A stretch of 64,000 nt of DNA from Bacteroidota bacterium (GCA_002748065.1 PDRJ01000032.1:236-64235); one strand, 5' to 3'. Shown: positions 1,350 through 64,000, counted from the first letter of the stretch. Numbers and translations: made by a program. Notes: generated from the sequence alone by a model not told the origin.

Positions 1350-1435
1350 GCCGTACTTTTAGAATGGTTTTATTGGGATACAGAGGTTTTCTTGAATTTT
1401 TCTAAAAACTTTCAGGTGCTAGTGATAAAAAATGA

Positions 1436-1443
1436 TAAATTTG
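1436..1443 (+). promoter_or_regulatory. Bacteroidota -7 promoter box TAAATTTG
   Basis: Matches TAnnTTTG, 14 nt upstream of ATG 1457. It sits in a 19-nt string (aaaaatgataaatttgaat) repeated at 2536..2554. Confidence 0.5.
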
Positions 1444-1456
1444 AATAAAGATAAAT

Positions 1457-2329
1457 ATGATGAATAACGTATTATTGGCGGGAGCAACAGGATATTTAGG
1501 AAGTTTTATAACTCAGGAATTAGTTGCAAGAGATTTTGTGACAAGGATAGTCGTGCGTAATAAAGAGAAGGTAAATATAAACGCTCCCAATTTAGAAGTG
1601 GTAGAAGCACAAGTAACAGATCCTGAATCACTTAAAGGGATATGTGAAGGCTTCAATATTGTGATAAGCACTGTTGGAATTACACGCCAAAAAGATGGAT
1701 TGACCTACATGGATGTTGATTATCAGGCAAATGTGAACTTAATAGATGAAGCCAGGAAAAGTGGTGTCACAAAGTTTATTTATATCTCTCTCCTTAACGG
1801 AGATAAATTAAGGTATATAAAAGGTGGAGAGGCAAAGGAGAAATTAGTTGATTACTTAAAAAATTCTGGTTTGGATTATTGCATTATAAGACCTAATGGC
1901 TTTTTCTCTGATATGGGCGATTTTCTTAAAATGGCAAAAGGTGGGAGGATATATCTTTTTGGCAAAGGAGAACTTAAAATGAATCCAATTCACGGAAAGG
2001 ATTTAGCAGAAGTGGTTGTTGATTCAATAAATCAAAATAAACAAGAAATAAATGTGGGCGGACCTGATATGTTATCTCAGAACGAGATTGCCGCATTGGC
2101 ATTAGAGGCATATAGAAAACCTGTTAAAATAGTTCATCTTCCCGATTGGATACGAAGATTTGTTATTTGGTTTTTTCGTTCTTTTACCAATCAAAAGATT
2201 TATGGACCTATTGAATTTTTTATGACGATAATGGTGATGGATATGCAAGCACCAAAATATGGGAAAGAGAAACTAGAAGATTTCTTTAATCAAGAAGTAA
2301 AAAAACTAGAAAGAACTCTGCATAATTGA
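1457..2329 (+). CDS. NAD(P)H-binding atypical SDR (NmrA-like) oxidoreductase
   Basis: 290-aa ORF with N-terminal Rossmann motif LLAGATGYLGSFI and an NmrA/atypical-SDR-like layout. Confidence 0.75.
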   Translation: MMNNVLLAGATGYLGSFITQELVARDFVTRIVVRNKEKVNINAPNLEVVEAQVTDPESLKGICEGFNIVISTVGITRQKDGLTYMDVDYQANVNLIDEARKSGVTKFIYISLLNGDKLRYIKGGEAKEKLVDYLKNSGLDYCIIRPNGFFSDMGDFLKMAKGGRIYLFGKGELKMNPIHGKDLAEVVVDSINQNKQEINVGGPDMLSQNEIAALALEAYRKPVKIVHLPDWIRRFVIWFFRSFTNQKIYGPIEFFMTIMVMDMQAPKYGKEKLEDFFNQEVKKLERTLHN

Positions 2330-2543
2330 GTAGATGGCTGACAGCCGGCTGACCCTCAATGTGCCTTTTCCTCCCAGGGCGGATAGAGTTATTGCCGTAT
2401 GTATGAGCCTTATATACGGGGCCGTTCGCTAAATCGAAGGGAATAGGGGGTATCTCTAATTCGGTGTAGTGAAGCTTTTTTGAAGAGCTGATTAAATTTT
2501 CAAGATAACCTAGGATTGATTGCGGAAATTAGGCGAAAAATGA

Positions 2544-2551
2544 TAAATTTG
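2544..2551 (+). promoter_or_regulatory. Bacteroidota -7 promoter box TAAATTTG
   Basis: TAnnTTTG match 71 nt upstream of ATG 2622, in the same 19-nt context as at 1427..1446. Confidence 0.45.
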
Positions 2552-2621
2552 AATGCCATATAAGTAACTGAAAATTAAGGACTGATTTTTATATTAGTCG
2601 GAATTTTATAAAGAAATACCT

Positions 2622-3308
2622 ATGAAAAGACTAATAATTTTGATTGCTTCAATATTTATTATATCGAATGCATATTCACAAGAAATGAAGTTTGAGAGAC
2701 CAAACTATAAGAAGATTAGAAGAGAAATAAAAAAGAGAAAATCGAACCTTTATTATAAAAAACTATTTGACCGATATATAAATGGGGATACAACATTCAA
2801 CTTAAATGAGAAAAGACATTTATATTACGGGTTTTCATTTCAAGAAGATTATTCTCCATATGGCATTTCAACATATAGTGATAGTTTGACTATATTTTAT
2901 GAGAAGGACACATTAACTGAGTCTGATTTCAATGAAATTATTAAGTTTTCAAAATTATTACTTGATGAAAACCCATTCGACTTAAGAGCATTGGACAATT
3001 TGAATTACGCTTATTATAGACTTGGAAACAAAGAGCTTGAAAATCTTTACAATTATAAATTATTGTTGATTCTTGATGCAATTATGAGTTCAGGTGATGG
3101 AATAAGTGAGAAAAGTGCATTTTATGTAATATATATATCGCATGAATATGATTTGTTAAATGCTCTAGGATTTGGTTTTGGGGGAGAGCAAAGTTTTACA
3201 ACAAACGGTTATGATTATTTAAAGCTACAGGACAATGAATTTGGAATTGAAGGATTCTATTTTGAAATAAGTAGAAGTTTAGAGCAGCTTAATCTCATGT
3301 TTAAATAA
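2622..3308 (+). CDS. Secreted hypothetical protein
   Basis: 228-aa ORF with signal peptide MKRLIILIASIFIISNAYSQ. It is Lys/Asn/Tyr-rich with AT-rich codon usage. No motif I can name with confidence. Confidence 0.6.
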   Translation: MKRLIILIASIFIISNAYSQEMKFERPNYKKIRREIKKRKSNLYYKKLFDRYINGDTTFNLNEKRHLYYGFSFQEDYSPYGISTYSDSLTIFYEKDTLTESDFNEIIKFSKLLLDENPFDLRALDNLNYAYYRLGNKELENLYNYKLLLILDAIMSSGDGISEKSAFYVIYISHEYDLLNALGFGFGGEQSFTTNGYDYLKLQDNEFGIEGFYFEISRSLEQLNLMFK

Positions 3309-3425
3309 AAAACGTCCTGTAATCGAGTAAGATGGCTGAGGACCGGCTCTTTTTTGGGGTTGGTTTTGAGCAGGATGAGGTTGCTAGAGGGAATTCTATT
3401 GCTGGAAAGGTTTTTATATAAAAAA

Positions 3426-3458
3426 GGCCCTACTCTTTGAAGAGTAGGGCCTTTTTTT
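3426..3458. terminator. Bidirectional rho-independent terminator
   Basis: GGCCCTACTC-tttgaa-GAGTAGGGCC, with an A-run before and a T7 run after. It lies between the convergent genes 2622..3308(+) and hydC(-). Confidence 0.8.
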
Positions 3459-3538
3459 ATCCTCAAAACAAGAGAAGAAGGCCTGTGAGAATAGAATTAC
3501 AGGCTCTTCCTGTGTGTTTAGAGGTGGCGGTCAATGAC

Positions 3539-4027
3539 CTATAAATCACGGTACTCTTTAATGATCTTCTTAACATCATCAGGAGCCACGCGGCCATAGG
3601 TTTTGTCTCCTACTTGTACTACAGGAGCGAGTCCACAGGCCCCCACACAGCGCAGGCATGAGAGTGAGAACTTTCCATCCTCGCTGGTCTTTCCCACTTC
3701 AAGGTTCAACTCTTTCTTGAATTCATTTAGAACCTTCTCTGCACCACGAACGTAACAAGCAGTTCCTGTACAGATGGAGATGGGGAACCTTCCCTTGGGG
3801 GTCATGGTGAAGAATGAGTAGAATGTGACGACACCATAGACCTTTGCAACGGAGATGTTGAGCTCTAGCGCAATCACCTCTTGTACTTCAGGGGGTAGAT
3901 AGCCAAAGACCTCTTGTGTTTTATGAAGGACATTGATAAGTTCTCCCGGGTCATTGTTGAAAGAGGTACAAATCTCTTCTATTTTAGCAATATCCGCTTT
4001 TTTTAATTTTACTTTTATGCTTGACAT
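3539..4027 (-). CDS. hydC: [FeFe]-hydrogenase NuoE-like [2Fe-2S] subunit (HydC/HndA type)
   Basis: 162 aa. Cys pattern CTGTAC...CLRCVGAC is typical of NuoE/HydC thioredoxin-like 2Fe-2S proteins. Last gene of the hydrogenase operon. Confidence 0.85.
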   Translation of the reverse strand: MSSIKVKLKKADIAKIEEICTSFNNDPGELINVLHKTQEVFGYLPPEVQEVIALELNISVAKVYGVVTFYSFFTMTPKGRFPISICTGTACYVRGAEKVLNEFKKELNLEVGKTSEDGKFSLSCLRCVGACGLAPVVQVGDKTYGRVAPDDVKKIIKEYRDL

Positions 4028-4068
4028 AATATTTGTCTCCTTTACTTTATGTGACTTAACAGGGCTTC

Positions 4069-5847
4069 TTAGTCGATTAAGATATCCTTTTTACTCTTAT
4101 CAAAATAGTGGGTATGCAACAGGTGGTGTGCTTTCTCACTGAGAGGCTTCTCAAGGAACTCTTCGTAAATCTTTTTGATGTAGGGGTTCTCATGTGATTT
4201 ACGTATGGTCTTCATTTCATCTTCTCGATAGAGGGCTTCCATTCGTTTTCTAAGAATGTTGCTGTCACCATGGTGTAGGGGTTGACCTCCTCCGGCGATA
4301 CATCCTCCTGGGCAAGCCATAATTTCAATGGCGTGGAAATCATTGTTTCCCTCCCTGATACTTTCGAGAAGTTTACGGGCATTCCCCAATCCGTGGGCAA
4401 TACCGATGTTGATGGGAAGCCCATTAAAGTCAACAGTGGCAGAGCGGATTCCCTCAAAACCTCGAAGCGCTTTAAAGTCTACATTATCAAGGGTTTTCCC
4501 GGTTTGTAATTCGTAAGCTGTACGTGCTGCGGCCTCAATTACCCCTCCAGTAGTTCCAAAGATGACTCCCGCACCGGTTGATTCTCCCAATGGATTATCG
4601 AAATCTTCCTCCGGAAGGTTGTTGAAATCCATGTTGGATTGTTTAATCAAGTGTGCCAGCTCTCTTGTGGATATGGAGTAGTTTACATCGGGATCGTTTT
4701 CCACAAAGAATTCATCCCGTTGACACTCATATTTTTTGGCCAGGCAAGGCATGATAGATACTACGATAAGGTCCTCTCGTTTCACCCCAATTTTATCGGC
4801 AAAGTAAGTTTTGGCAATAGAGCCGAAGATCTGTTGAGGTGAGCGAGCTGTTGAGGGAATATCGCGCATGTCGGGGAAGTTGGACTCGAAGAAGTTCACC
4901 CATGCCGGACAGCAGGAGGTAAGAATGGGGAGAGCCACCTCTTTGTCTCCCGCCAAGAACTTGTTCAGTCGGTTGAGAAGTTCCGTACCCTCCTCCATAA
5001 TGGTGACATCCGCAGCGAAGTCGGTGTCGAAGACGTAGTCAAATCCCAGACGGCGTAGTGCTGCCGCCATTTTTCCGGTAACGAGGGTTCCCGGTTCGTT
5101 TCCGAACTCTTCTCCCAGGGTTGCCCGTACTGCTGGAGCTGTTTGGACGATGACGGTCTTGTTAGGATTCGCAAGGTCACGAATAAGACGGTGAGTATGA
5201 TCCACTTCTGTGAGTGCACCGGTGGGGCAAACTGCCACACACTGGCCGCAGTAAGTACAGGTGGATTTCTCCAGGTCTTGCTCAAAGGCGGTGGCTACTA
5301 CTGAATCGAAGCCTCTGTTGATGGCCGATAGAGCTCCAACTGTTTGTACGGTGTTACACATGGTTTCGCACCGGCGACACATGATACACTTATTTACATC
5401 ACGAATGATGGAGGGAGAGGTATCTTCACGATAGGTTGATTGCTCCCCTTTATAGGCAATTTTGCGAATCCCAAGATCTTGCGCCAAGGTCTGTAGCGTA
5501 CAGTTTCCACTTTTTGCACAGATGAGACAGTCAGCCGGGTGATCGGAGAGGATTAACTCAACTACGGTTGAACGTGCGTTGAGTACGCGGATGGAGTTGG
5601 TGCATACTTCCATCCCCTCCATAACCTTAGTTACACACGCAGGTGCAAGATTTCTTCTTCCTTTGACCTCTACCACACACACACGACAACCTCCCGGTTT
5701 GTTCTCGATGTTCATGTCATCGAGTTTCATGTAACAGAGTGTAGGAATATGGATATTATATTTTTTTGCTGCTTCGAGAATAGTGATTCCTGCGGGAACT
5801 TCTATCTCTTTATGATCGATTGTTAATTTGATATTTGCCATAGTCAA
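4069..5847 (-). CDS. hydA: [FeFe]-hydrogenase catalytic subunit (M3-type HydA/HndD)
   Basis: 592 aa with N-terminal 2Fe-2S and several 4Fe-4S Cys clusters. H-cluster motifs are LTSCCPAW, MPCLAKKYE and EIMACPGGCIAGGGQP. Confidence 0.95.
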   Translation of the reverse strand: MTMANIKLTIDHKEIEVPAGITILEAAKKYNIHIPTLCYMKLDDMNIENKPGGCRVCVVEVKGRRNLAPACVTKVMEGMEVCTNSIRVLNARSTVVELILSDHPADCLICAKSGNCTLQTLAQDLGIRKIAYKGEQSTYREDTSPSIIRDVNKCIMCRRCETMCNTVQTVGALSAINRGFDSVVATAFEQDLEKSTCTYCGQCVAVCPTGALTEVDHTHRLIRDLANPNKTVIVQTAPAVRATLGEEFGNEPGTLVTGKMAAALRRLGFDYVFDTDFAADVTIMEEGTELLNRLNKFLAGDKEVALPILTSCCPAWVNFFESNFPDMRDIPSTARSPQQIFGSIAKTYFADKIGVKREDLIVVSIMPCLAKKYECQRDEFFVENDPDVNYSISTRELAHLIKQSNMDFNNLPEEDFDNPLGESTGAGVIFGTTGGVIEAAARTAYELQTGKTLDNVDFKALRGFEGIRSATVDFNGLPINIGIAHGLGNARKLLESIREGNNDFHAIEIMACPGGCIAGGGQPLHHGDSNILRKRMEALYREDEMKTIRKSHENPYIKKIYEEFLEKPLSEKAHHLLHTHYFDKSKKDILID

Positions 5848-51872: not shown

Positions 51873-52949
51873 ATGCAATGCAGTAAGATTACGCTCAGCG
51901 TCGTTGCTCTTATGCTTCTCACTCTTTGGGGGTGTGTGCGGAGGGAGAAACCCATTTCCTCCTCTTCGACGCATACACATTATGCCCAACTTTTTGCCTT
52001 GGAAGCGGAGGGGGATGGGGTCATCTTTTTGGACGGCCCGGAACGGGAAACATGGGTACCGCAGGGGGATGGGATCTCCTCCGATAAGGCTTCACCCCGT
52101 TACGTCTGCCTCTCCTCTACGCATATCGCATTTCTCTCCTCGTTGGGAGAGGCGGCTCATATTGTGGGGACACCGGACTCTTCCTACATCTTCAATGAGG
52201 ATGTTAAGAAACGCATTCGTGAAGGGCTCGCCCAAGTAGTGACCTTTGGTGGAGGTGTGAATAGTGAGTTGATCTTTGAACTTAGACCCACTGTGATTTT
52301 TGCGGATCGCATGCGAGCTAACGAGATGGAGATGTTTGAGGATAAGGGGATTAATGTGGTTTATGTCGAGGAATATCGGGAGGCCTCGCCATTGGCGCGA
52401 ACCGAATGGTTGCGGGTCTTTGGACGTATTGCGGGAAAGGCAGCATTCGCCGATAGCCTATTCACCCATATTGAAAAAGCTTATGAAGAGGTGGCCGAAA
52501 AGGTAAAGGCACAAGTGACAACGCATTTCACCATTTTTGGCGGTATGGCATACCAAGGCGTTTGGTATGTGAGTGGAGGGGGGAGCTATATCGCCCGGCT
52601 CTACGAAGATGCCGGGGCAGAATACCTCTTTGCTGACAATACCAGAAGCGCCAGTATCCCCCTCGACTTTGAAGCGGTATATGAAAAGGGGAGTGCTGCG
52701 GACTTTTGGCGCATTGTGTATGGCTCTTCAGACTCTGTCACCTATGAGCAGCTCGCGACATTGAATAGGCATTATAAGGATTTTCCCGCCTTTAAGAGCA
52801 AGAGGGTTCTTCTCTGTAACCCCACGCAAAGTGCCTATTTTGAGCAGGGAGTGGTAGAACCTCAGGTGATTCTTTCCGATCTGGTCTTCGCCCTCTATCC
52901 CCAATTGTTAACAGGATATAAACCCAAATATTATTATCTTTTACCGTAA
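51873..52949 (+). CDS. ABC transporter substrate-binding lipoprotein (BtuF/FhuD-like, iron-complex or corrinoid)
   Basis: 358 aa. Lipobox LTLWGC. First gene of a binding-protein/permease/ATPase operon. Confidence 0.75.
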   Translation: MQCSKITLSVVALMLLTLWGCVRREKPISSSSTHTHYAQLFALEAEGDGVIFLDGPERETWVPQGDGISSDKASPRYVCLSSTHIAFLSSLGEAAHIVGTPDSSYIFNEDVKKRIREGLAQVVTFGGGVNSELIFELRPTVIFADRMRANEMEMFEDKGINVVYVEEYREASPLARTEWLRVFGRIAGKAAFADSLFTHIEKAYEEVAEKVKAQVTTHFTIFGGMAYQGVWYVSGGGSYIARLYEDAGAEYLFADNTRSASIPLDFEAVYEKGSAADFWRIVYGSSDSVTYEQLATLNRHYKDFPAFKSKRVLLCNPTQSAYFEQGVVEPQVILSDLVFALYPQLLTGYKPKYYYLLP

Positions 52950-52950
52950 C

Positions 52951-53982
52951 ATGATTGCAATCAATAAGAAGGTTTTTTTGATTAGTTTACTCCTCTTCTT
53001 CGGCGTTTTATTGCTATTTGTAGGAAATGTCTTATGGGGCTCTGTGCGGATTCCCATAACAGATATTATCGCTATTATAAAAGGTGGAGGGGGACGTGAT
53101 TCCTGGAATACCATCGTGCTGGATTCAAGGCTACCCATGGCATTGACGGCTTTTCTTGTGGGAGCGGCTCTGTCAGTGAGTGGTCTGTTGATGCAGACAC
53201 TCTTTCGTAACCCCCTTGCCGGACCCTCGGTGCTGGGAGTGACCTCCGGAGCCAGCCTGGGAGTGGCTCTGGTGGTGTTGCTGACCGGTGGTCTACTCGC
53301 TCAGTACGACCATCTTTTGATCTCCAACCTGGGGGTCTTTCTTGCTGCCTTGATGGGAGCAGGGGTGGTGCTTTTGGTGCTGATTCTCTTATCGGCAAGT
53401 ATTGGTAATAACTTGGTGTTGTTGATTGTGGGACTGATGATGGGGTATGCGATCTCCTCTTTGGTGAGTATCCTTCAATTTTTTGCCACCGACCATGATT
53501 TGCAGGCCTATGTGATCTGGGGTATGGGGAGTTTCTCCCATGTGGGATGGCAGAAGATGGCTTGGTTTCTTCCTGTGGTTGTGGTGGGTCTGCTGGCTTC
53601 CTTGCTGCTTATGAAGCCCTTAAATGGGATGTTGTTGGGTGAGAGCTATGCGCAGAACCTGGGGCTGAATGTCCGGAGAGTACGGGTGCTGATTATCGCC
53701 GTGGCAGGGGTGTTAGCTGCCGTCGTGACAGCTTTTTGTGGGCCAGTGGCCTTTGTGGGTATCGCTGTCCCCCATATCGTTCGGAATCTCTACCATTCCC
53801 ATGATCATCGTATACTCATTCCGGGAACCATTCTTGCGGGAGGTGCCTTTGCGCTCTCTTGTAACCTTATTGCTCGCCTGCCCGGAATGATGGGAGCACT
53901 GCCCATAAATGCCATAAGTTCCCTGTTGGGAGCTCCCGTGGTCGTATGGGTGATTTTTAGAAATAGATTTAAGGAGGTGTGA
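52951..53982 (+). CDS. FecCD-family ABC transporter permease
   Basis: 343 aa, multi-TM. RLPMALTAFLVGAALSVSGLLMQ and PINAISSLLGAPVVVW are typical of FecCD/BtuC. Confidence 0.88.
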   Translation: MIAINKKVFLISLLLFFGVLLLFVGNVLWGSVRIPITDIIAIIKGGGGRDSWNTIVLDSRLPMALTAFLVGAALSVSGLLMQTLFRNPLAGPSVLGVTSGASLGVALVVLLTGGLLAQYDHLLISNLGVFLAALMGAGVVLLVLILLSASIGNNLVLLIVGLMMGYAISSLVSILQFFATDHDLQAYVIWGMGSFSHVGWQKMAWFLPVVVVGLLASLLLMKPLNGMLLGESYAQNLGLNVRRVRVLIIAVAGVLAAVVTAFCGPVAFVGIAVPHIVRNLYHSHDHRILIPGTILAGGAFALSCNLIARLPGMMGALPINAISSLLGAPVVVWVIFRNRFKEV

Positions 53983-55010
53983 TGAAAAACGGACAAGGTA
54001 AAAAACGACAATTGATTCTGCAAGCGTATCATCTTACCGTTGGATATGGGCAAGGAGAACAGGAGAAGGTAGTGCAGAAAAGCCTTCGCTTGAAAATGTT
54101 TACGGGTGAATTGGTGTGTCTTCTGGGGCCTAATGGAGCCGGTAAATCCACCCTGTTACGAAGCCTTTGTGGCCTTCAGAAGCCTTTGGGTGGGGATATT
54201 AAGTTGGCCAATAAGAGGTTGGAAGACTACACGGCAAGGGAACTCTCCCAGGTGGTCAGTACAGTGCTTACGGATAAGATCTCCGTGAAACACCTTCGTG
54301 TATTTGACTTGGTTGCTACAGGTCGTTATCCCTATACCGGCTATTTTGGCCGCCTCTCGGTCCTGGATCGTGAAGTGATTGAAGAGTCTATGGCGTTGGC
54401 AGGCGTAGAAAATCTTTCTAATCGTTATCTGGATGAATTGAGTGATGGAGAGAAACAGAAAGTGATGATTGCTAAGGCTCTGGCGCAGGAAACCCCTTTT
54501 ATTATCCTGGATGAACCCATGGCATTTCTTGATTTCCCCTCAAAACTGGAGCTGATGCAGATCTTGCAGAAGTTGACCTCCGAGCACCATAAGGCCATTC
54601 TTATGACGACCCATGATTTAAACCTTTCCATCCGGGGCGCAGACTGGATATGGCTCATTGGTTCCCAGCAATCTATAAAAAGGGGCGTTCCTGAGGATCT
54701 TGTATTAAATGGAAGTTTTGCCTCCTTTTTTAAGAAAGAAGATATTCGCTTTGATGTGAGTACCGGTGATTTTTTCTTTGATGATCATCTCCATAAAAAA
54801 ATTAGTTTTAGGGGGAATGGGTTGAATGCTTCTTGGGTGAGGAAAGCTCTTCAACGTAAGGGATATCAGGTGGTTGGTGCCCCCAAAGGGAAGGAGCAGG
54901 TTTCGGTTGCCCCCAAAAAGGAGCTGGAGGTGACTCTCGTTCATGCCGACAAATCCATTGTGGTGAACTCCATAAAGGAGATGCTTATTCAGGTTGACAA
55001 AATGTTTTGA
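53979..55010 (+). CDS. ABC transporter ATP-binding protein with ~90-aa C-terminal extension
   Basis: Walker A GPNGAGKST, signature LSDGEKQ, Walker B IILDEP. ATGA overlap with the permease gene. Confidence 0.88.
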   Translation: MMKNGQGKKRQLILQAYHLTVGYGQGEQEKVVQKSLRLKMFTGELVCLLGPNGAGKSTLLRSLCGLQKPLGGDIKLANKRLEDYTARELSQVVSTVLTDKISVKHLRVFDLVATGRYPYTGYFGRLSVLDREVIEESMALAGVENLSNRYLDELSDGEKQKVMIAKALAQETPFIILDEPMAFLDFPSKLELMQILQKLTSEHHKAILMTTHDLNLSIRGADWIWLIGSQQSIKRGVPEDLVLNGSFASFFKKEDIRFDVSTGDFFFDDHLHKKISFRGNGLNASWVRKALQRKGYQVVGAPKGKEQVSVAPKKELEVTLVHADKSIVVNSIKEMLIQVDKMF

Positions 55011-56955: not shown

Positions 56956-58680
56956 TTAGGAGGAGATGGTGTGCAGTGAGTAGGCTTGGTATCCAAACGC
57001 CTCAAGCGTGATCGGCAGGGTGAACACGTCCGCTTTTTTGGCGTAGGTGGAAGTCTCCTCGGGGAGGGTTGGGAGTTGCTGTTTCCTTTGGAGTTGCGTG
57101 GTCTCCTCCATCCCCAAGGTTTCCAGTACATGAGCGTTGAGGGTCACCATGCTCTTTTGGGGTAGGGCATTGAAAGAGGCGACGATTAAGATCTTCTCCT
57201 CTTCCGTATGGCGTAAGAAGGCATAAATCCGTTCTTCTTGAAGGTGGGGATTTATCCACATAAGGTCATAAAAGGCTCCTGTTGAGATGGCGGGGTGCTG
57301 CCCGGCAAAACGGAGCAGGTCGCCATAGGCGTTACGAAGCTGTTGGACGGAGGGGGAGAGGTTGGCCCCGTCGAAAGCGCCGTGGTGGTTCCAACGCTGT
57401 ACCTCCGGCATGTGCCAATAGTCAAAAATGGTGGTCCGTCCGTCATCGCCACTGAACCCGGCCTGCGCATCTCCCTGTTCGCCCAACTCCTGACCATTGT
57501 AGATCATTACAGGCCCCTGATGCATAAGGGTGGAGACAACCATGGCCGGAAGACCTCTCTCCGCCTTGCCCGCAAAGTGAGTTGATGCAATACGCTGTTC
57601 ATCATGGTTCTCCATAAATCGTAGCATGAAGGGATCCAGCCCTCCTAAGTTTTGCCACACATGAGTTATATCATGAATGCTTCCTCCTCCTGTGGTCAGG
57701 TTGCGAAGGGTATCGTAGAGCCCCACTTTGTCGTAGAGGTAGTCAAACTGTCCCTCATGGAGGTAGGCGTGGTAGCGATCCGGATTGTAGACCTCCGCAA
57801 TAAAGATAAGCTGAGGATAGGTACGCTTTAGGTTTGAGATGGCCCAATGCCAAAAGGCCACAGGTACCATCTCGGCCATGTCGCATCGAAAACCGTCAAT
57901 TCCCATGGCACTCCAGAAAAGGAGGATAGCCTGCATCTTCTGCCACGTGTCGGGAATGGGAGAGAAATGGTTTTGGGAGCTTTGGTAGTCAACGCCATAG
58001 TTGAGCTTTACCGTTTCATACCAGTCGTTGATGGAGGGGCTGGCGGTGAAACAGTCGTTGCCACTGGCTTTGGCCGGATATTCACGGTAGGGCTCAAGGG
58101 TATTGAGGTCAACGTAATTACTGCATTTCTCCCGGGCTTCGTCGGGTAACCTGAAGGGCTCTTCAGGGAGATAGTAGAAGTTATTTTCCGGGGCGAAGGC
58201 GCTTGTTGGATCATCGTTTTCCCCCAACTGTCCGTGCCCCTCCGGGAGGTTGTCTGCGTGGTAGTTGCGCGCCACATGGTTGGGGACAAAATCGATGATG
58301 ACCTTCAAACCCTGGCGATGCGTTCGTTGGATCAATGCCTTGAACTCCTGCATCCGATTTTCCGGTTCCTCCGCCAAATCCGGATGGACATCATAGTAGT
58401 CTTTGATGGCGTAGGGGGATCCTGCTCGTCCCTTGATGACAAGGGGATGGTCCGGCGTAATCCCATAGCGGCTATAATCGGTTGAGGTGGCATGTTCGGG
58501 AACGCCGGTGAACCAGATATGGGTGATGCCCAGCTCCGCAAGGGAGCGTAACGCATTGTCGTTGACGGAGGCAAAGGTACCGCACCCGTTCTCTTGTCGT
58601 GATCCAAAAGGGATGGGGTGAGCCGTTTCGTTGCCAAAGAGTCGTGGAAAGAGTTGGTAAAGGGTGATTTTCTTTTTCAT
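56956..58680 (-). CDS. GH13 alpha-amylase-family glycoside hydrolase
   Basis: Trimmed to MKKKITLYQLFPRLFGN. DFVPNH, GFRCDMAEMV, IAEVY and FMENHDEQR catalytic-region motifs. Confidence 0.88.
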   Translation of the reverse strand: MKKKITLYQLFPRLFGNETAHPIPFGSRQENGCGTFASVNDNALRSLAELGITHIWFTGVPEHATSTDYSRYGITPDHPLVIKGRAGSPYAIKDYYDVHPDLAEEPENRMQEFKALIQRTHRQGLKVIIDFVPNHVARNYHADNLPEGHGQLGENDDPTSAFAPENNFYYLPEEPFRLPDEAREKCSNYVDLNTLEPYREYPAKASGNDCFTASPSINDWYETVKLNYGVDYQSSQNHFSPIPDTWQKMQAILLFWSAMGIDGFRCDMAEMVPVAFWHWAISNLKRTYPQLIFIAEVYNPDRYHAYLHEGQFDYLYDKVGLYDTLRNLTTGGGSIHDITHVWQNLGGLDPFMLRFMENHDEQRIASTHFAGKAERGLPAMVVSTLMHQGPVMIYNGQELGEQGDAQAGFSGDDGRTTIFDYWHMPEVQRWNHHGAFDGANLSPSVQQLRNAYGDLLRFAGQHPAISTGAFYDLMWINPHLQEERIYAFLRHTEEEKILIVASFNALPQKSMVTLNAHVLETLGMEETTQLQRKQQLPTLPEETSTYAKKADVFTLPITLEAFGYQAYSLHTISS

Positions 58681-58732
58681 GGGCAGGGGGTTGAGGGGCC
58701 TTTTTTGAGGAGCTGCCTGTTTGATCCCTCCT

Positions 58733-60772
58733 CTAAGCGTTGTCAATAAGTTCGGTGATTTCCTGGAGGCTCTTTGCTTGAAAGATCTCTTCCGGGTTAA
58801 TGCGGACGTTGAACCGGTTGGAGAGATCCGCTGCCAGCTCGATGGCTGTGATGGAGTCCAATGGATATTGGCTTAGTGCATGGTCGGGATCAAGACGGGA
58901 GGCGGGGATGCGCATCTTCTGCTCAATCCACTGGAAAAGCCACTGCATCGTTTCCCCCATGGGTGAGGCGGTTTCCGGAGCCTCTCCCCAAGCTGTTTCC
59001 GCTTCCCACGCTCCTACGACAGCAAGCTCCCCTCTGAGGTAAGCCTCCTTGCATTGGTGGCGAGAGATTTTTCCACTGGAGGTCTTGGGGATGCTCATGG
59101 TACGGATCAGGATGATGGCAAAGGGGGCAATCTCAAACTCGGTGAGGATGGCTTGACGGATCTTCTCCATGACCGCAGCGGTGTCCAACCTGCGTAGTGC
59201 CGTGCGCCGAACCTCTGCCACCACCACTAACTGCTCTTTCCCTGCAGCATCCACGGAGAACGCAGCGGTGTTGCCGGCATAAATACAAGGATCACTCTGT
59301 TCTGTCGCAAGCTCAATATCCTGTGGATAGTGGTTGGCACCATTGATGATAATCAGGTCTTTTAGTCGTCCTGAGACATATAGCTTCTGCTTCCATATAA
59401 ACCCCATATCCCCGGTACGGAGGTAGGGCTCTTCATGGGTAGCCGCGATGTGAGCCCCAAAGGTTTCCTGGGTTAGTGTGGAATTGTTCCAGTATCCTTG
59501 AGTAACAGAAGAGCCTGATATCCATATCTCTCCCACCTCATCTTTTTTGCAAGGGGACAGGGTCTCGGGGTTGACAATAACGACCTTCATATCGTGGCAA
59601 GGCCTTCCTACGGAGGCTACCACATACCCTTTTGCGGTTTTGGGAACAACGCTTACCTTCCCCTCTTGGTAGGCGGCTCTATCCAAATGGAGGTATTGGG
59701 CTCTCTCTTGCACCTCCTCAGAGCTGATGTGCAGGGTCGTCTCCGCCATACCATAGGCGGGAGTTAAACAGTTCGTGTTGAGCTGAACACTTTTGTACGT
59801 TTCCATGAGCCTCTCATGGGTCTGTTGCCTGGCCGGTTCTGCTCCATTATAAAGCGTGACGATACCACTCAGGTCCAGAGAAGCTTTCTCCTCCTCTGTC
59901 ACCTTGGTTGCCAGAAGGTCATAGGCAAAGTTGGGAGCACCTCCAATGGTGCCGTTATACTGTTGGAAGGCCCTGAACCAACGCAGGGGTTTCTGAATAA
60001 AGCTAATGGGCGGCATTAGTACACTATGATAATCGGTATAGACAGGACTGAAAATACCAAACACCAGCCCCATGTCATGGAAGATGGGAAGCCAGTGGAC
60101 CGAGATGCTCGCCTTGCCTAACCGGAATCCCTCTTTGAGTTGTTGACAATTGGCCAGGATATTCCCGTGGCTCACCATTACCCCTTTGGGGGCACCTGTA
60201 GAGCCACTGGTATATTGTAGAAAGGCAAGATCCGTTCTTTGGGGAAGAAAGGGACGGTACGCCAGCCTGTTCTCCATAATCTGTTCATGGGTCTGATGGG
60301 CCATCTCTCTTAGCTGTTTCTCGGAAGCATGGAAGGAGGTGATTCTCGGTAAAATGGACTCCGTGGTAGCGATAAGTTTGGCGTTTGAGTTATGAATAAT
60401 GTTTTTAAGGCGTAGAAAAGATTGATTGCGCTTGGGGGGGTAGGCCGGTATGGCGATGGCTCCGGCATACAGACAGCCCCAAAGCGCAATGATAAATTGG
60501 TATCCCTGGGGATAGAGGAGCAGAATTCGCTCTCCTTTCAGCCCTTTATCTTGCAGGAAGGCGGCGTATCGTTTGGCCTCCCGGTCGAGCATCTCATAGC
60601 TGATCTCTGTGGCATCATTCTCTCCATCGTTGAGGTAGGTGTATACGATCTTTTGGGGTTGGAGGGTGGCGTGATGCTGTACTCGTTCTACCAAACTGGA
60701 GAACGCGGCATCTATAGGAGGATCCTCTTTGGTGATTGGAGAGCGATCATTTTTCGATGAAAAGATGGCCAT
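58733..60772 (-). CDS. Fatty-acyl-AMP ligase (FAAL-type adenylation domain) fused to a C-terminal carrier (PP-binding) domain
   Basis: 679 aa. LLYPQGYQFIIALWGCLYAGAIAIPAYPP and LQYTSGSTGAPKGV (A3) motifs. The last ~80 aa read ...SQYPLDSITAIELAADL (phosphopantetheine Ser in LDS). Confidence 0.8.
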   Translation of the reverse strand: MAIFSSKNDRSPITKEDPPIDAAFSSLVERVQHHATLQPQKIVYTYLNDGENDATEISYEMLDREAKRYAAFLQDKGLKGERILLLYPQGYQFIIALWGCLYAGAIAIPAYPPKRNQSFLRLKNIIHNSNAKLIATTESILPRITSFHASEKQLREMAHQTHEQIMENRLAYRPFLPQRTDLAFLQYTSGSTGAPKGVMVSHGNILANCQQLKEGFRLGKASISVHWLPIFHDMGLVFGIFSPVYTDYHSVLMPPISFIQKPLRWFRAFQQYNGTIGGAPNFAYDLLATKVTEEEKASLDLSGIVTLYNGAEPARQQTHERLMETYKSVQLNTNCLTPAYGMAETTLHISSEEVQERAQYLHLDRAAYQEGKVSVVPKTAKGYVVASVGRPCHDMKVVIVNPETLSPCKKDEVGEIWISGSSVTQGYWNNSTLTQETFGAHIAATHEEPYLRTGDMGFIWKQKLYVSGRLKDLIIINGANHYPQDIELATEQSDPCIYAGNTAAFSVDAAGKEQLVVVAEVRRTALRRLDTAAVMEKIRQAILTEFEIAPFAIILIRTMSIPKTSSGKISRHQCKEAYLRGELAVVGAWEAETAWGEAPETASPMGETMQWLFQWIEQKMRIPASRLDPDHALSQYPLDSITAIELAADLSNRFNVRINPEEIFQAKSLQEITELIDNA

Positions 60773-60803
60773 AGTTGTTTTTATGATTGTTTTAAGTGGT
60801 TCG

Positions 60804-60811
60804 CAAAGATA
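60804..60811 (-). promoter_or_regulatory. -7 box TATCTTTG (minus strand) for the FAAL-carrier gene
   Basis: The plus strand reads caaagata, 32 nt upstream of start 60772. Confidence 0.5.
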
Positions 60812-60832
60812 GGATTTATATACATTTAGTGA

Positions 60833-60840
60833 TATTTTTG
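60833..60840 (+). promoter_or_regulatory. -7 box TATTTTTG for the MBOAT operon
   Basis: 20 nt upstream of ATG 60860. Divergent from the box at 60804..60811. Confidence 0.5.
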
Positions 60841-60859
60841 CCCCTGTTTAACTGGTGAT

Positions 60860-62311
60860 ATGTTATTTAACTCGCTCGAATTTCTACTGTTTTTTCCGGT
60901 AGTAATGATCCTCTATCAACTGCTGCCTCGCAAGCATCGTTGGCTGTTGTTATTGGCATCAAGTTACCTGTTTTACATGGCTTGGAAGGTGGAGTATGTG
61001 TTTCTGATTCTCTTCTCCACAGGGGTTGATTATTGGGCGGCGCTTCGTATGGTGCGGACGGAGGAGCCGCGGGTGCGTCGACGCTATCTGTTTCTTAGCA
61101 TATTCGCTAACTTAGGGCTGCTGTTTGCCTTTAAGTACATGGGTTTTTTCAATACCTCCCTGAATGAGGCTTTCGCCTGGGCGGGGCTTCCATGGCAGTT
61201 CTTTGTGCCCAATTGGTTGCTTCCGGTGGGAATCTCTTTCTACACTTTTCAGACCATGAGCTACACCATTGATGTTTACAAGGGGAAGGTGAAGCCGGAG
61301 AGGCATTTTGGCTATTTTGCCCTTTATGTGAGCTTCTTCCCTCAACTTGTGGCTGGCCCTATTGAGAGACCGGGGCATCTCCTTCCCCAACTGCATCGCC
61401 TTGCTTCTCCTACGGAGAAGGAGTTCGCCAGTGGAATACGGCTTATGCTGTGGGGATATTTTAAGAAGGTGGTGATTGCCGATCGTATCGTGATGTTTAC
61501 CCAACCGGTCTTTATGGATCCGGAGAATTTTGGTTTTTGGTCGGTGGTGCCGGCACTCTTTTTCTTGTTGATACAGGTTTATGCCGATTTCAGCGGGTAC
61601 ACCGATATTGCCATAGGCTCTGCCCGCTGCATGGGAGTGCATCTGAGTGAGAACTTTAACCGTCCCTTTACGGCTACCTCCATCCGTGACTTTTGGGCGC
61701 GGTGGCATATTACCCTTACCAACTGGTTCCGTGATTACCTCTTCTTCTCCTTCTCTTTTACCCGTAAGGGGAAGGTGCAGCGGTGGCGTATTCATCTGGG
61801 GCTGTTCCTGATGCTTTTACTTATAGGGCTGTGGCATGGGGCAAACTGGACCTTTATCACCTTTGGGGCGATTCATGGTGTCTATCTTATCGTGGGGAAC
61901 CTTATACGTCCTTATGGGGAGAGGATGGCCTTGCGTACGGGACTTTCCCGACGGCCTTTATTACGCGAATACCTTGGCATTGCCAGGACGATGCTGCTGC
62001 TGATGTTCTCAGCCTTCTTCTTCGGAAGACACTCCTTTGCTCAGTCCATGACTATGATGCGGCAGGCTGTGGTGATGGATGGCTTTAAGGGCTCTCTGCT
62101 CTGGTTAAGAGGCAATGATAGCATCCTCAGCGTGCTGTTGGTGATCTTCCTTTTTGTCGCAGAGCGAAAGATGGCACATCAAGGGGGAGGCGCGGAGATT
62201 CTTTCTCGGTTGTCGGTGGGCAAGCGCTGGCTGCTCTACCTGGCATTCTTCTTTTTTATACTTATTTTTGGAATCTTTCATAAGAATGAGTTTATCTATT
62301 TTCAATTTTAA
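60860..62311 (+). CDS. MBOAT-family membrane O-acyltransferase (AlgI/DltB-like)
   Basis: 483 aa, multi-TM. FWARWHITLTNWFRDYLF (invariant MBOAT His) and GLWHGANW. Confidence 0.88.
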   Translation: MLFNSLEFLLFFPVVMILYQLLPRKHRWLLLLASSYLFYMAWKVEYVFLILFSTGVDYWAALRMVRTEEPRVRRRYLFLSIFANLGLLFAFKYMGFFNTSLNEAFAWAGLPWQFFVPNWLLPVGISFYTFQTMSYTIDVYKGKVKPERHFGYFALYVSFFPQLVAGPIERPGHLLPQLHRLASPTEKEFASGIRLMLWGYFKKVVIADRIVMFTQPVFMDPENFGFWSVVPALFFLLIQVYADFSGYTDIAIGSARCMGVHLSENFNRPFTATSIRDFWARWHITLTNWFRDYLFFSFSFTRKGKVQRWRIHLGLFLMLLLIGLWHGANWTFITFGAIHGVYLIVGNLIRPYGERMALRTGLSRRPLLREYLGIARTMLLLMFSAFFFGRHSFAQSMTMMRQAVVMDGFKGSLLWLRGNDSILSVLLVIFLFVAERKMAHQGGGAEILSRLSVGKRWLLYLAFFFFILIFGIFHKNEFIYFQF

Positions 62312-62316
62312 GAGCG

Positions 62317-63294
62317 ATGAAAAATTGGAGAGCCATTCATAAGGTGTTGTTTGCTGCGGTTTTAGTGCTGACGGGAAACTTCCTCCTGCACGCCCTCTAT
62401 CATCGTTTTATGATTATCAACCGGGTGAATTACCATCAGGATGAGCAGTTTGATGCGCTGGATTCATTGACCGGAATGCTCCTTATTGGTAATTCTCACA
62501 ACCCGTTAAATCCCGAGATTTTGGGCAACGCCTTTAACTATGCTTCGCCCCATGAGCTCTTCCCGCACACCTATTACAAGCTGAAATCTTATATTGACAG
62601 GCCGGGGATCCAGCCCTCTTGCATTGTTTTTCCGGTGGATGCCAGTGCCTTCTCTCCGGGAGCCCTCTCGACCATGCGCTTCCATGATTATTGGGTGCGG
62701 CGATTGGATTACCTGGCGCTGGCGCGCGAATGCCGCGACTTTACCTATGTTCGGCACTATCTCGCTGCCCGTTGTTGCTGCTACCTGGGGAATTATACCC
62801 ACGGCTGGTGGAGCATTCAAGCCCTTTTTGCCGATTTCTCCGTTATGAAAAATGGCTACCGTCCTCCCCGGGATTTCAAACGTTGGATGGATATTACCAA
62901 CAAGACCAAAGCCGGATGGGAGCGAGCCAACTCCTTTGTCTCCTCCTATGAGGATAGCCGTCCCGATTCCCTTATGACCCGCTATTTTGAGCGTATCCTG
63001 CAACTTTGTGAAGCACGGAATATAGAAGTGTTTCTCTACCGCTCGCCGTTGACCAAGGAGTATGTGGAGAGTGCTTCCGAGTTTGTGGATTATGAGGCTT
63101 TTGATGCCTCTATAGATAGTATTGTATCATGTTACCCCAATGTCTCAGCCATTTTTAACTACCGGACGCTCTTTTTTCAACATCCGGACTATTTTTTTAA
63201 TGCGGACCATCTTAACCCGCGTGGTGCCGACTCCCTAACGCGGTTGTTTCTTCACGATATTTCGCGCTATAACGCCGCAACCTCTTTTGATTAG
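62317..63294 (+). CDS. Membrane-anchored SGNH/DltD/AlgJ-like protein (candidate extracytoplasmic acyltransferase partner)
   Basis: 325 aa. One N-terminal TM, LLIGNSH near the N-terminus and FFNADHLNPRGAD near the C-terminus (Ser ... Asp-His arrangement). Starts 5 nt after the MBOAT stop. The fold assignment is tentative. Confidence 0.5.
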   Translation: MKNWRAIHKVLFAAVLVLTGNFLLHALYHRFMIINRVNYHQDEQFDALDSLTGMLLIGNSHNPLNPEILGNAFNYASPHELFPHTYYKLKSYIDRPGIQPSCIVFPVDASAFSPGALSTMRFHDYWVRRLDYLALARECRDFTYVRHYLAARCCCYLGNYTHGWWSIQALFADFSVMKNGYRPPRDFKRWMDITNKTKAGWERANSFVSSYEDSRPDSLMTRYFERILQLCEARNIEVFLYRSPLTKEYVESASEFVDYEAFDASIDSIVSCYPNVSAIFNYRTLFFQHPDYFFNADHLNPRGADSLTRLFLHDISRYNAATSFD

Positions 63295-63406: not shown

Positions 63407-63434
63407 GGCTGTTAGCTTTTGGCTGTTAGCCTTT
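63407..63434. repeat. 14-nt tandem word repeat (ggctgttagcYttt x2)
   Basis: ggctgttagctttt ggctgttagccttt, followed by the partial copy agcttc. Confidence 0.7.
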
Positions 63435-63482
63435 AGCTTCTTGGGTTAATGGTAACGTTCACAAAAAGTTGCTTCCTGTCTC

Positions 63483-63518
63483 CCGACTTCCGTCTTCTGA
63501 CTTCCGACTTCCGTCTTC
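63483..63518. repeat. Direct repeat ccgacttccgtcttc x2 (21-nt period)
   Basis: ccgacttccgtcttc-tgactt-ccgacttccgtcttc. Confidence 0.7.
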
Positions 63519-63694
63519 ATTACCATATCGCCGCATTGTCACATGATCGCATTTAAAACAAAGATAATCGCATTATTTTCAAATAATTGATAATTACTAA
63601 TTAAAAAAATGTTTGAGCTATAGGTAATAAAATCATCGTATTGGTATTAAAGAGAAGAAACCTTTGTAACAGTAGTTCTCCAAGAAGCTATCGA

Positions 63695-63707
63695 ACCCCG
63701 TAGGGGT
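63695..63707. repeat. 13-nt palindrome ACCCCGTAGGGGT (REP/IS200-end-like hairpin 1)
   Basis: Perfect palindrome, followed by gaaacctttgtaa, which also occurs at 63657..63669. Confidence 0.7.
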
Positions 63708-63746
63708 GAAACCTTTGTAAAGAAAGGAGCCTTTACTACTATACAA

Positions 63747-63759
63747 GCCCCGTAGGGGC
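63747..63759. repeat. 13-nt palindrome GCCCCGTAGGGGC (hairpin 2)
   Basis: Second copy 52 nt after the first, and 21 nt upstream of ATG 63780. Confidence 0.7.
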
Positions 63760-63779
63760 GACACTAAACAAAGACGGAT

Positions 63780-63958
63780 ATGGCTAATACCTACACGCAA
63801 CTATACCTGCAAATCGTATTTGTAGTAAAAAGCAGAGAAAACCTCATTCATGAGCGTATCCGTGAAAAAGTAGAGAAGTACATCTGTGGTATTGTGAGCA
63901 AGCATAAATCTAAGCCCCTTGTCATCTACTGCAATCCGGATCACTTACATCTCTTAAC
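63780..63958 (+). pseudogene. IS200/IS605-type Y1 (HUH) transposase / RAYT-like gene, interrupted after the HUH motif by a MITE
   Basis: MANTYTQLYLQIVFVVKSRENLIHERIREKVEKYICGIVSKHKSKPLVIYCNPDHLHLL (HUH = HLH). From 63959 the reading frame continues into MITE sequence (TRGCIESPTSSLCL). Confidence 0.65.
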
Positions 63959-64000
63959 TAGAGGCTGTATAGAAAGTCCGACTTCTTCGTTATGCTTGTC
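63959..64000 (-). mobile_element. MITE-like element, copy J (reverse orientation, cut by window end)
   Basis: TAGAGGCTGTATAGAAAGTCCGACTTCTTCGTTATGCTTGTC matches the reverse complement of the right end of copies G and E. Confidence 0.8.

Follow-up and report, generated by a model that had tools for sequence, protein, structure and literature searches.

A FAAL-ACP gene divergent from an MBOAT-SGNH gene pair

The DNA analyzed here, a stretch of 64,000 nucleotides from a Bacteroidota bacterium (GCA_002748065.1 PDRJ01000032.1:236-64235; hereafter the window), carries near its end three genes that encode a predicted fatty-acyl-AMP ligase (FAAL) fused to an acyl carrier protein (ACP), an MBOAT (membrane-bound O-acyltransferase) as well as a membrane-anchored SGNH-fold protein (Table 1). 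The first gene is divergent from the other two, and the third starts 5 nt (GAGCG) after the MBOAT stop. A sequence-only reading of the window had described this trio as a Dlt-like module, rebuilt around a FAAL, in which a fatty acyl group loaded on the carrier passes through the MBOAT to an extracytoplasmic acceptor. The three open reading frames (ORFs), the 87-bp spacer, the 5-nt gap, all the motifs that it quoted and the back-to-back TAnnTTTG boxes, each correctly oriented for its gene, lie where it placed them, and its domain identities (AMP-binding, PP-binding, MBOAT and SGNH) were confirmed by hidden Markov model (HMM) and structure searches. Our comparison with related genomes reveals a larger conserved Bacteroidales cluster, to which the trio corresponds in reduced form, and suggests that the trio may act as a carrier-fed acyl relay.

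Table 1. Positions of the features of the locus in the window, and of comparison loci in relatives (L numbers, with coordinates of the respective locus).
Feature	Position	Strand	Basis
FAAL-ACP fusion gene (gene 1)	58733..60772	-	679-aa ORF; Pfam, NCBIfam and PDB matches
Acyl carrier domain, aa 603-679	58736..58966	-	Pfam PP-binding and ACP HMM
Predicted phosphopantetheine-attachment Ser640 codon, within YPLDSITAIEL	58853-58855	-	LDS motif
Adenylation core motif PKTSSGKI	59066-59089	-	Translation read directly
Adenylation core motif GRLKDLIII (GRxKD)	59345-59371	-	Translation read directly
Adenylation core motif LRTGDMGF (TGD)	59399-59422	-	Translation read directly
FAAL-specific insertion, aa ~350-385, SSEEVQERAQYLHLDRAAYQEGKVSVVPKTAKGYVV	59618..59725	-	Segment alignment to solved structures
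Adenylation core motif YGMAETT	59735-59755	-	Translation read directly
Adenylation core motif YTSGSTGAPKG (aa 187-197)	60182..60214	-	Translation read directly
Divergent intergenic region, 87 bp between start codons	60773..60859	.	
TAnnTTTG box, TATCTTTG	60804-60811	-	Consensus match; oriented toward gene 1
TAnnTTTG box, TATTTTTG	60833-60840	+	Consensus match; oriented toward MBOAT gene
MBOAT gene (gene 2), AlgI/PatA type	60860..62311	+	483 aa; Pfam, DltB sequence match, AlphaFold2 and Foldseek
MBOAT catalytic region, RWH(283)ITL and LWH(326)GANW	61700..61849	+	Invariant His; aligned with DltB
C-terminal FIYFQF, aa 478-483, FXYXXF acyl-shuttle motif with Tyr480	62291..62308	+	Family-wide MBOAT ending
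Single-TM, SGNH-fold, DltD-like protein gene (gene 3)	62317..63294	+	325 aa; AlphaFold2 model and Foldseek
Gene 3 N-terminal membrane anchor, aa 10-28	62344..62400	+	Sole hydrophobic segment; model helix aa 2-31
SGNH block I, G58-N59-S60-H61, predicted nucleophile Ser60	62488..62499	+	Conservation
SGNH block V, N295-A-D297-H298-L-N-P-R-G (aa 295-303)	63199..63225	+	Conservation
Extended-cluster examples	L002 3990-8534, 10965-12944; L024 14-8505; L039 757-14243		
Second carrier-like ORF examples	L005 1650-1880; L024 2634-2864; L039 757-984	-; +; +	
Reduced locus, window: FAAL-ACP divergent from MBOAT-SGNH			
Reduced locus, L001: FAAL-ACP divergent from MBOAT-SGNH, plus sulfotransferase			
Reduced locus, L030: standalone ACP divergent from MBOAT-SGNH, without FAAL, KASIII or GNAT			
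Reduced locus, L082: MBOAT-SGNH-FAAL-ACP, co-directional; unrelated S46 peptidase upstream			

Gene 1 encodes a predicted FAAL fused to a carrier domain

Gene 1 matches the Pfam families AMP-binding (1.4e-67), AMP-dom_DIP2-like and PP-binding (1.4e-12). Among the NCBIfam models, those of FAALs match at 1e-127 to 1e-101, compared to 1.7e-33 for the DltA model, whose 116 bits fall well under the cut-off of 476 that defines DltA-type D-alanine--carrier ligases. Models of long-chain-fatty-acid--CoA ligases match at 2e-49 or weaker (for example, PRK06187), with the exception of PRK07768 (3.5e-95). In the PDB, the top match is to the olefin-synthase polyketide synthase (PKS) from Picosynechococcus PCC 7002, in its FAAL domain (7r7e, E 1e-153), and the alignment, which spans aa 23-590, crosses the insertion region with short gaps only. 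The 87-residue segment that spans the insertion (aa 341-427) is aligned over its full length only by FAAL chains (3kxw, 7r7e, FadD32 and FadD23), whereas the alignments of fatty acyl-CoA ligases and nonribosomal peptide synthetase (NRPS) A domains begin only past the insertion. Because FAAL structures alone align the entire segment, the FAAL-specific insertion is present in gene 1. Thus, the earlier proposal of a fatty-acid-type activator in place of a D-alanine ligase holds.

The adenylation motifs YTSGSTGAPKG, YGMAETT, TGD, GRxKD and PKTSSGKI are all intact, and the protein also contains PQGYQF (aa 88-93), AGAIAIPAYPP (aa 103-113) and the LDS motif with Ser640. The best PDB matches of the carrier domain are the PKS-type ACPs 4hkg and 2n98; DltC is matched at chance level (E~0.8). 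The fused PP-binding domain with its DS motif is the type of acceptor that a FAAL requires, with Ser640 the predicted loading site. Judged by its sequence, gene 1 is therefore a FAAL fused to a PKS-type ACP and not a D-alanine ligase, and FAAL activity would be expected of it. FAALs load holo-ACP instead of CoA (PMC11837247), and the substrates of known FAALs range from C4 to C18 (2025 FAAL-pathway review). As the product of such an enzyme is an acyl-ACP, an acyltransferase client is needed. The binding pocket was also inspected for chain length. The residue at the A229 position, which is mutated in 7r7g, is Tyr in the window protein and likewise Tyr in the long-chain FadD28, and was uninformative.

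Gene 2 encodes an MBOAT with a fused tyrosine motif

Gene 2 matches Pfam MBOAT (5.8e-20) and carries the motif RWHITLTNWFRDYLF at aa 281-295. The DltB model TIGR04091 matches at 4.9e-46 with 157 bits, under its 375-bit cut-off, and DltB is the nearest solved MBOAT by both sequence (6bug, E 1.4e-25) and fold. In Foldseek searches with the AlphaFold2 (AF2) model (mean predicted local distance difference test score, pLDDT, 86.8), DltB was followed by HHAT, PORCN and LPCAT3, with MBOAT7 also among the matches. His283 and His326 are invariant in 31 MBOAT homologues and in every MBOAT of the loci described below, and their RWH and LWH motifs align with the DltB motifs RWHMSL and FWHG.

All examined MBOATs of the family terminate in F[FI]Y[FL]QF. 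In gene 2, this ending is preceded by two hydrophobic helices (residues 419-439 and 453-470) that are absent from DltB, and the tail itself is flexible (pLDDT <50). The FXYXXF motif was defined for DltX and PatA, and its Tyr was shown experimentally to be the shuttle on which the acyl group leaves the MBOAT and reaches its SGNH partner (PMC12148441). A Dlt system has a DltB without the tyrosine motif and a separate DltX, while gene 2 carries the motif itself. Gene 2 is thus, by motif and domain content, a predicted AlgI/PatA-type MBOAT with its tyrosine shuttle fused at the C-terminus.

Gene 3 encodes a DltD-like SGNH-fold protein

In the AF2 model of gene 3 (pLDDT 91.9, predicted template modelling score 0.89), a membrane helix at the N-terminus leads into an SGNH-type fold. 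The 11 top Foldseek matches in the PDB are all DltD (best E 1.7e-6, TM-score about 0.44), followed by generic SGNH esterases, and the structural match to PatB is weak (E 0.045). The fold comparison was needed, as a gene 3 profile found chance-level matches only among PDB sequences. Pfam DltD does not match gene 3, although a distant relative (L036) matches it at 9e-4. The only Pfam hit is DUF1574 (PF07611), which at 1.5e-5 and 25.0 bits stays below the threshold of 29.1 bits; this family is found at E<=0.05 in only 6 of 28 close homologues.

The gene 3 family comprises 3075 clusters at 50% identity. Over 142 diverse relatives, G58, S60, P244 and H298 are 100% conserved, G303 is 99% and D297 89% conserved. 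The classical block-V Asp, three residues before the His, corresponds to position 295. This residue is Asp in 69% of the family and Asn in the clade of the window, where the adjacent D297 is conserved instead. On these data, the predicted Ser-His pair is secure and the acidic partner atypical; the SGNH fold and the invariant Ser and His that had been anticipated from the sequence are in place, with DltD the best structural match, while the expected triad Asp is replaced by Asn295 with Asp297 beside it.

FAAL and carrier genes accompany the MBOAT-SGNH pair throughout one clade

One genome per species was scanned with the gene 3 profile, which yielded 38 loci, nearly all in metagenome-assembled genomes of Bacteroidales, Lentimicrobium or Prolixibacteraceae. 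The MBOAT and SGNH genes are adjacent in every locus. We counted FAAL and ACP genes within about 10 kb of the pair at the 30 in-clade loci with at least 6 kb of upstream sequence. FAAL genes are present in 28 and fused-type ACPs in 25, and all 30 contain one or both. The same holds for 18 of 19 in-clade metagenome loci, some of which duplicate genome loci, for a pooled count of 48/49 informative in-clade loci. By contrast, the seven MBOAT-SGNH pairs outside the clade, two of which sit in classical Wzy/Wza/Wzc polysaccharide clusters, are accompanied by neither FAAL nor ACP. These counts bear out the supposition that FAAL/carrier and MBOAT pair are co-conserved in related genomes. Neighbour-joining trees of the MBOAT and SGNH proteins (midpoint rooted, without bootstrap values) agree in their main groupings, and the linked pairs form one clade in both. 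This linkage argues for the carrier as the probable MBOAT donor over acyl-CoA.

The residue that precedes the SGNH nucleophile follows the same division. Essentially all proteins linked to FAAL/ACP have Asn there (GNSH; L001-L035, L041 and L082, with GSSH in L039), but 87% of the wider SGNH family, and the four unlinked relatives whose sequence was readable at this position, have Asp (GDSH/GDSR). Most of the wider family combines the classical GDSH with DxxH, whereas the clade of the window combines GNSH with N-A-D-H. The GNSH versus GDSH difference may be a clade marker tied to the acyl group that is handled.

In most loci, the pair stands at the end of an operon in the order KASIII-SDR-GT2-GNAT-MBOAT-SGNH. 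Divergent from this operon lie two FAAL genes, one of them fused to an ACP or accompanied by an 80-aa ACP, together with another small carrier-like ORF and a sulfotransferase (clusters have one to three of these). The KASIII is FabH-like, the SDR FabG-like and the GNAT PseH-like, and a full-length match (6e-49) marks the GT2 as ArnC-like. A GT-C protein with PMT_2 and TPR domains is kept in 27 loci, and DegT aminotransferases and a Wzx-like flippase occur in several. The extended cluster of the Bacteroidales has 9-12 genes, and the trio is not self-contained but a reduced version of this cluster, which lies outside the sequence on which the earlier reading was based. The extended cluster looks like one in which an N-acylated amino sugar is made on polyprenyl phosphate, moved outside the cytoplasm, sulfated and O-acylated, which suggests an undescribed sulfated, N-acylated amino-sugar modification of the envelope.

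Four loci are reduced in this manner (the window, L001, L030 and L082): they retain an ACP, three of them also the FAAL, with MBOAT-SGNH, and have lost KASIII, SDR, GT2 and GNAT. As they are spread over three subclades whose remaining members hold the full cluster, the same parts were kept more than once, in one case with a changed gene order.

Several further features of the relatives were noted. The second carrier-like ORF, of ~77 aa (FEWNSINALILIAMVKTEYDV; NS in place of DS), is present in about 20 loci, usually between both FAAL genes, and in L039 it heads the KASIII-SDR-GT2-GNAT operon. A division of the cluster into two modules, with the second carrier serving KASIII/SDR/GNAT and the first serving the MBOAT, was considered and is ruled out by L002 and L003, which combine the KASIII set with only the first carrier, and by L005 and L008, which have the second carrier without the KASIII set. 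The longer SGNH/MBOAT homologues P0357, P0348 and P0114 contain no fused carrier or adenylation domain. In L030 (5608-7263 and 10987-12777), L082 (14344-16008 and 16120-17490) and L078 (11679-13340), which are reduced or variant loci, the pair is flanked by B12-binding radical SAM enzymes, whose substrate could be the acyl chain or the acceptor, for instance in a C-methylation. In L022, the place that the two FAAL genes take in other loci is filled by a type III restriction-modification methylase together with an HTH protein and a Bro-N protein (1348-4382). Only the standalone ACP remains beside the operon there, suggesting that a mobile or defence element was inserted.

A proposed carrier-fed acyl relay

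The retained genes suggest a relay in which an acyl group would pass from fatty acid to acyl-AMP, acyl-ACP, Tyr480 and Ser60 and from there to an extracytoplasmic acceptor, a scheme to which we assign a probability of roughly 0.55. The FAAL domain would adenylate an aliphatic carboxylic acid, most likely a medium- or long-chain fatty acid, and load it onto the Ser640-phosphopantetheine of its own ACP. The acyl-ACP would then dock at the cytoplasmic face of the MBOAT, whose His283/His326 site would pass the acyl group to Tyr480 of the flexible FIYFQF tail on the periplasmic side. This hand-off, which had been proposed from the sequence of the window, is an inference from gene linkage and from the precedents of Dlt and PatA, and the KASIII, SDR and GNAT of the full cluster are alternative clients of the carrier. 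By analogy with HHAT and PORCN, which follow DltB in the structural matches, the MBOAT fold can carry long acyl chains to lumenal acceptors. The membrane-anchored SGNH protein would accept the acyl group on Ser60, with His298 as the base, and esterify the acceptor; the conserved motifs, the modelled DltD-like fold and the adjacency of the genes favour this step. The acceptor is most likely an envelope glycoconjugate, by analogy with the relatives, whose cluster appears to make an N-acylated amino sugar on polyprenyl phosphate and contains a GT-C+TPR transferase and sulfotransferases.

Several observations weigh against this relay, and a number of them would fit a scheme in which MBOAT and SGNH protein form an O-acetyltransferase of the ordinary AlgI/PatA type, with acetyl-CoA as donor, while the FAAL-ACP feeds a separate, cytoplasmic acyltransferase of the same glycoconjugate pathway. 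In the full clusters, that client would be the KASIII/SDR/GNAT route to the N-acyl amino sugar, so that the two branches would share a product but not a relay. AMP-ligase and ACP genes also occur in the tetronate-perosamine synthesis of Vibrio cholerae O1, which provides a parallel. The full-cluster ACP does have other plausible clients in the FabH-like KASIII, the FabG-like SDR and the PseH-like GNAT, to which the ACP genes are adjacent, and in L039 a carrier gene heads their operon. Within the clade, L078, the single exception in the counts above, combines KASIII, SDR and GNAT with MBOAT-SGNH and has no FAAL or ACP within 7-10 kb, and L004, L006, L035 and L049 have a FAAL with no carrier detected, which misfits a strict carrier requirement. 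The MBOAT shows no visible donor specialization: gene 2 keeps all family-invariant residues and is 45-50% identical to full-cluster MBOATs and to those of carrier-less polysaccharide clusters alike (L036, L042 and L044-L046), no sequence feature that separates the donor types was found in it, and its conserved basic and His positions are common to carrier-linked and unlinked MBOATs. MBOAT-SGNH systems with the fused FXYXXF motif use acyl-CoA (PMC12148441). The carrier of the trio is not DltC-like, the block-V Asp of the SGNH protein is replaced, and, because the contig stops 700 bp past gene 3, partner genes could lie elsewhere in the genome. We nevertheless regard the acetyl-CoA scheme as the less likely of the two, albeit the main competitor. 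The association with FAAL/ACP is near-complete within the clade and absent outside, and the change from GDSH to GNSH beside the SGNH nucleophile is the clade's own. In addition, the four reduced loci keep the ACP, three of them together with the FAAL, beside MBOAT-SGNH despite the loss of KASIII/SDR/GT2/GNAT and, in one, reordering of the genes, and no homologue of the extra genes of the cluster, or of its other acyltransferases, was found in the 64-kb window, which leaves the carrier there without an alternative client among homologues of the cluster's own enzymes.

The FAAL-ACP could also feed the MBOAT for the benefit of a membrane lipid, in the style of the eukaryotic lysophospholipid acyltransferase MBOATs, with re-acylation of a lysolipid or glycolipid and the SGNH protein acting as a lipid-facing transferase or an editing esterase. 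The Aas system of E. coli is a parallel. The appearance of LPCAT3 and MBOAT7 among the structural matches, the fatty acid as donor and the lack in the window of glycan-synthesis genes homologous to those of the cluster agree with a lipid acceptor, but we consider it improbable, given that the pair's nearest relatives belong to clusters for polysaccharides or amino sugars, which contain DegT, ArnC-like GT2, GT-C+TPR, Wzx-like flippase and sulfotransferases, and that the combination of Tyr shuttle and SGNH partner is known so far for polymer acylation only (PMC12148441). Still more improbable, and to our minds barely credible, is that the larger cluster left the trio behind, decaying or orphaned and with no current function. 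The close relatives L002 and L003 do hold the full cluster, of which the window lacks six or more genes, and an IS200-like transposase lies directly downstream; yet the three ORFs are intact with all catalytic motifs kept, promoter-like boxes are in place, and like reductions recur independently in L001, L030 and L082. Thus, the carrier-fed relay is the reading that we prefer.

Surroundings of the trio

The two TAnnTTTG boxes of the divergent region are compatible with Bacteroidota promoters, which would be weak evidence by itself; the octamer is common in the window (56 copies compared to 42 +/- 6 expected) and the boxes therefore carry little weight. A scan of the sequence for sigma-70 promoters and terminators did no better than on shuffled sequence, the model being ill-suited to Bacteroidota.

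About 490 bp after gene 3 lies a gene for an IS200/IS605-type Y1 transposase (63782-64000, continuing past the window end), which was identified on the matching NCBI contig by Pfam Y1_Tnp. Ahead of this gene come short tandem and direct repeats (63407-63434, 63476-63517, 63657-63720 and 63696-63764) that include two palindromic CCCCGTAGGGG units. The transposase may mark a breakpoint of cluster loss or an assembly stop.

On the other side, the FAAL-ACP gene is followed on the same strand by a gene of the GH13 alpha-amylase family (56956-58746, minus strand). With the TTG that is listed as its start, it would share 14 nt with the end of the FAAL-ACP gene, and an ATG 22 codons on (MKKKITLY, ~58680) is the more likely start. 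A GH13 gene beside the cluster is not conserved in relatives. Further away (51873-55010, plus strand), three consecutive ORFs resemble, from their translations, an ABC importer made up of a substrate-binding protein of the lipoprotein type, a FecCD-like permease and an ATPase; these appear unrelated to the trio.

Implications

The MBOAT-SGNH donors known to date are acetyl from CoA and D-alanine from DltC, and the pathways are of two kinds, Dlt, with a carrier, D-alanine and a separate DltX, and the rest, with acyl-CoA, acetyl and a fused motif (PMC12148441). The clade of the window cuts across this two-way division, in that its fused FXYXXF motif comes together with dedicated FAAL and carrier genes. 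Should the link prove functional, the tyrosine shuttle would accept carrier-bound donors more generally and could take acyl groups of lipid size across the bacterial inner membrane, and anaerobic Bacteroidales would hold an overlooked lipidated, in the relatives probably also sulfated, envelope glycoconjugate. It is plausible, if somewhat less likely than not, that this is the first bacterial MBOAT-SGNH relay to take a fatty acyl group from a carrier and link it as an ester, via acyl-Tyr, to an extracytoplasmic glycoconjugate, a bacterial counterpart of Hedgehog and Wnt lipidation and the core of a wider undescribed Bacteroidales pathway for a sulfated N-acylated amino-sugar in the envelope. 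The trio is a compact three-gene candidate for carrier-dependent, possibly lipid-sized, acyl transfer, with a hand-off that is predicted from comparative genomics.

Comparison with known systems

The literature search returned no paper that combines a FAAL, or fatty acyl-AMP ligase, with an MBOAT, and the 2025 review of FAAL pathways mentions neither MBOATs nor polysaccharides. The view that no known system has the composition of the trio therefore stands for the FAAL/MBOAT pairing, as far as the searched literature goes, but not for the broader combination of an adenylation enzyme, a carrier and an MBOAT, which has been proposed for AerO/AerP/AerQ of varlaxin (aeruginosin-type) biosynthesis in cyanobacteria (PMC10143770). 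In that system a stand-alone adenylation enzyme, a carrier protein and an MBOAT would decorate a glycosylated product; it differs in that the acid is hydroxyphenylacetate, the genes belong to a natural-product cluster, no SGNH partner is mentioned and the three-protein scheme was itself deduced from sequence only (PMC10143770).

The Dlt system for D-alanylation of teichoic acids (DltA, DltC, DltB, DltX and DltD) shares with the trio the logic of adenylation, carrier, MBOAT, FXYXXF Tyr, SGNH protein and extracytoplasmic acceptor, and DltB and DltD are the closest solved MBOAT and SGNH fold, respectively. However, the trio has a FAAL, a fused PKS-type ACP and a tyrosine motif fused to the MBOAT without DltX, its SGNH protein lies outside the Pfam DltD family, and its host is a diderm Bacteroidota. 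It follows the logic of Dlt without being a Dlt system: its proteins fall outside the definitions of DltA, DltC and DltB with DltX, and only the modelled DltD-like fold of the SGNH protein is common to both. The idea of a module rebuilt from Dlt parts was accordingly abandoned, the MBOAT being of the AlgI/PatA type.

The MBOATs of peptidoglycan, alginate and cellulose O-acetylation (PatA/PatB, AlgI/AlgJ/AlgX/AlgF and WssH/WssI) have the same FXYXXF motif on two extra helices and an adjacent, membrane-anchored SGNH partner, and distant relatives of the pair are found in polysaccharide clusters. Those systems use acetyl-CoA and have no carrier, as do all MBOAT-SGNH systems other than Dlt with regard to the carrier (PMC12148441), whereas the clade of the trio has a FAAL and/or ACP in all but one of its informative loci. 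A FAAL with the insertion followed by its cognate ACP is also the arrangement of FAAL-ACP loading modules, such as those of the PCC 7002 olefin synthase, FadD32-Pks13 and lipopeptide starters; the trio differs from these in that no PKS or NRPS lies downstream and the only adjacent acyltransferases are the MBOAT and the SGNH protein. The eukaryotic HHAT, PORCN and GOAT are likewise MBOATs that move fatty acyl groups from the cytosol to lumenal or extracellular acceptors, but they take acyl-CoA as donor and act directly on proteins, with neither a tyrosine shuttle nor an SGNH partner.

The cluster of the relatives, none of whose Arn-like genes are in the window, resembles the Arn system of polymyxin resistance in its ArnC-like polyprenyl-phosphate sugar transferase, DegT aminotransferase, nucleotide-amino-sugar N-acyltransferase and GT-C. 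Its GT-C differs in bearing TPR repeats, and the sulfotransferases, KASIII/SDR, FAALs and MBOAT-SGNH have no Arn counterpart. Thus, the trio unites the features that define PatA/AlgI-type MBOAT-SGNH systems with those that define FAALs, and it is this combination that is new.

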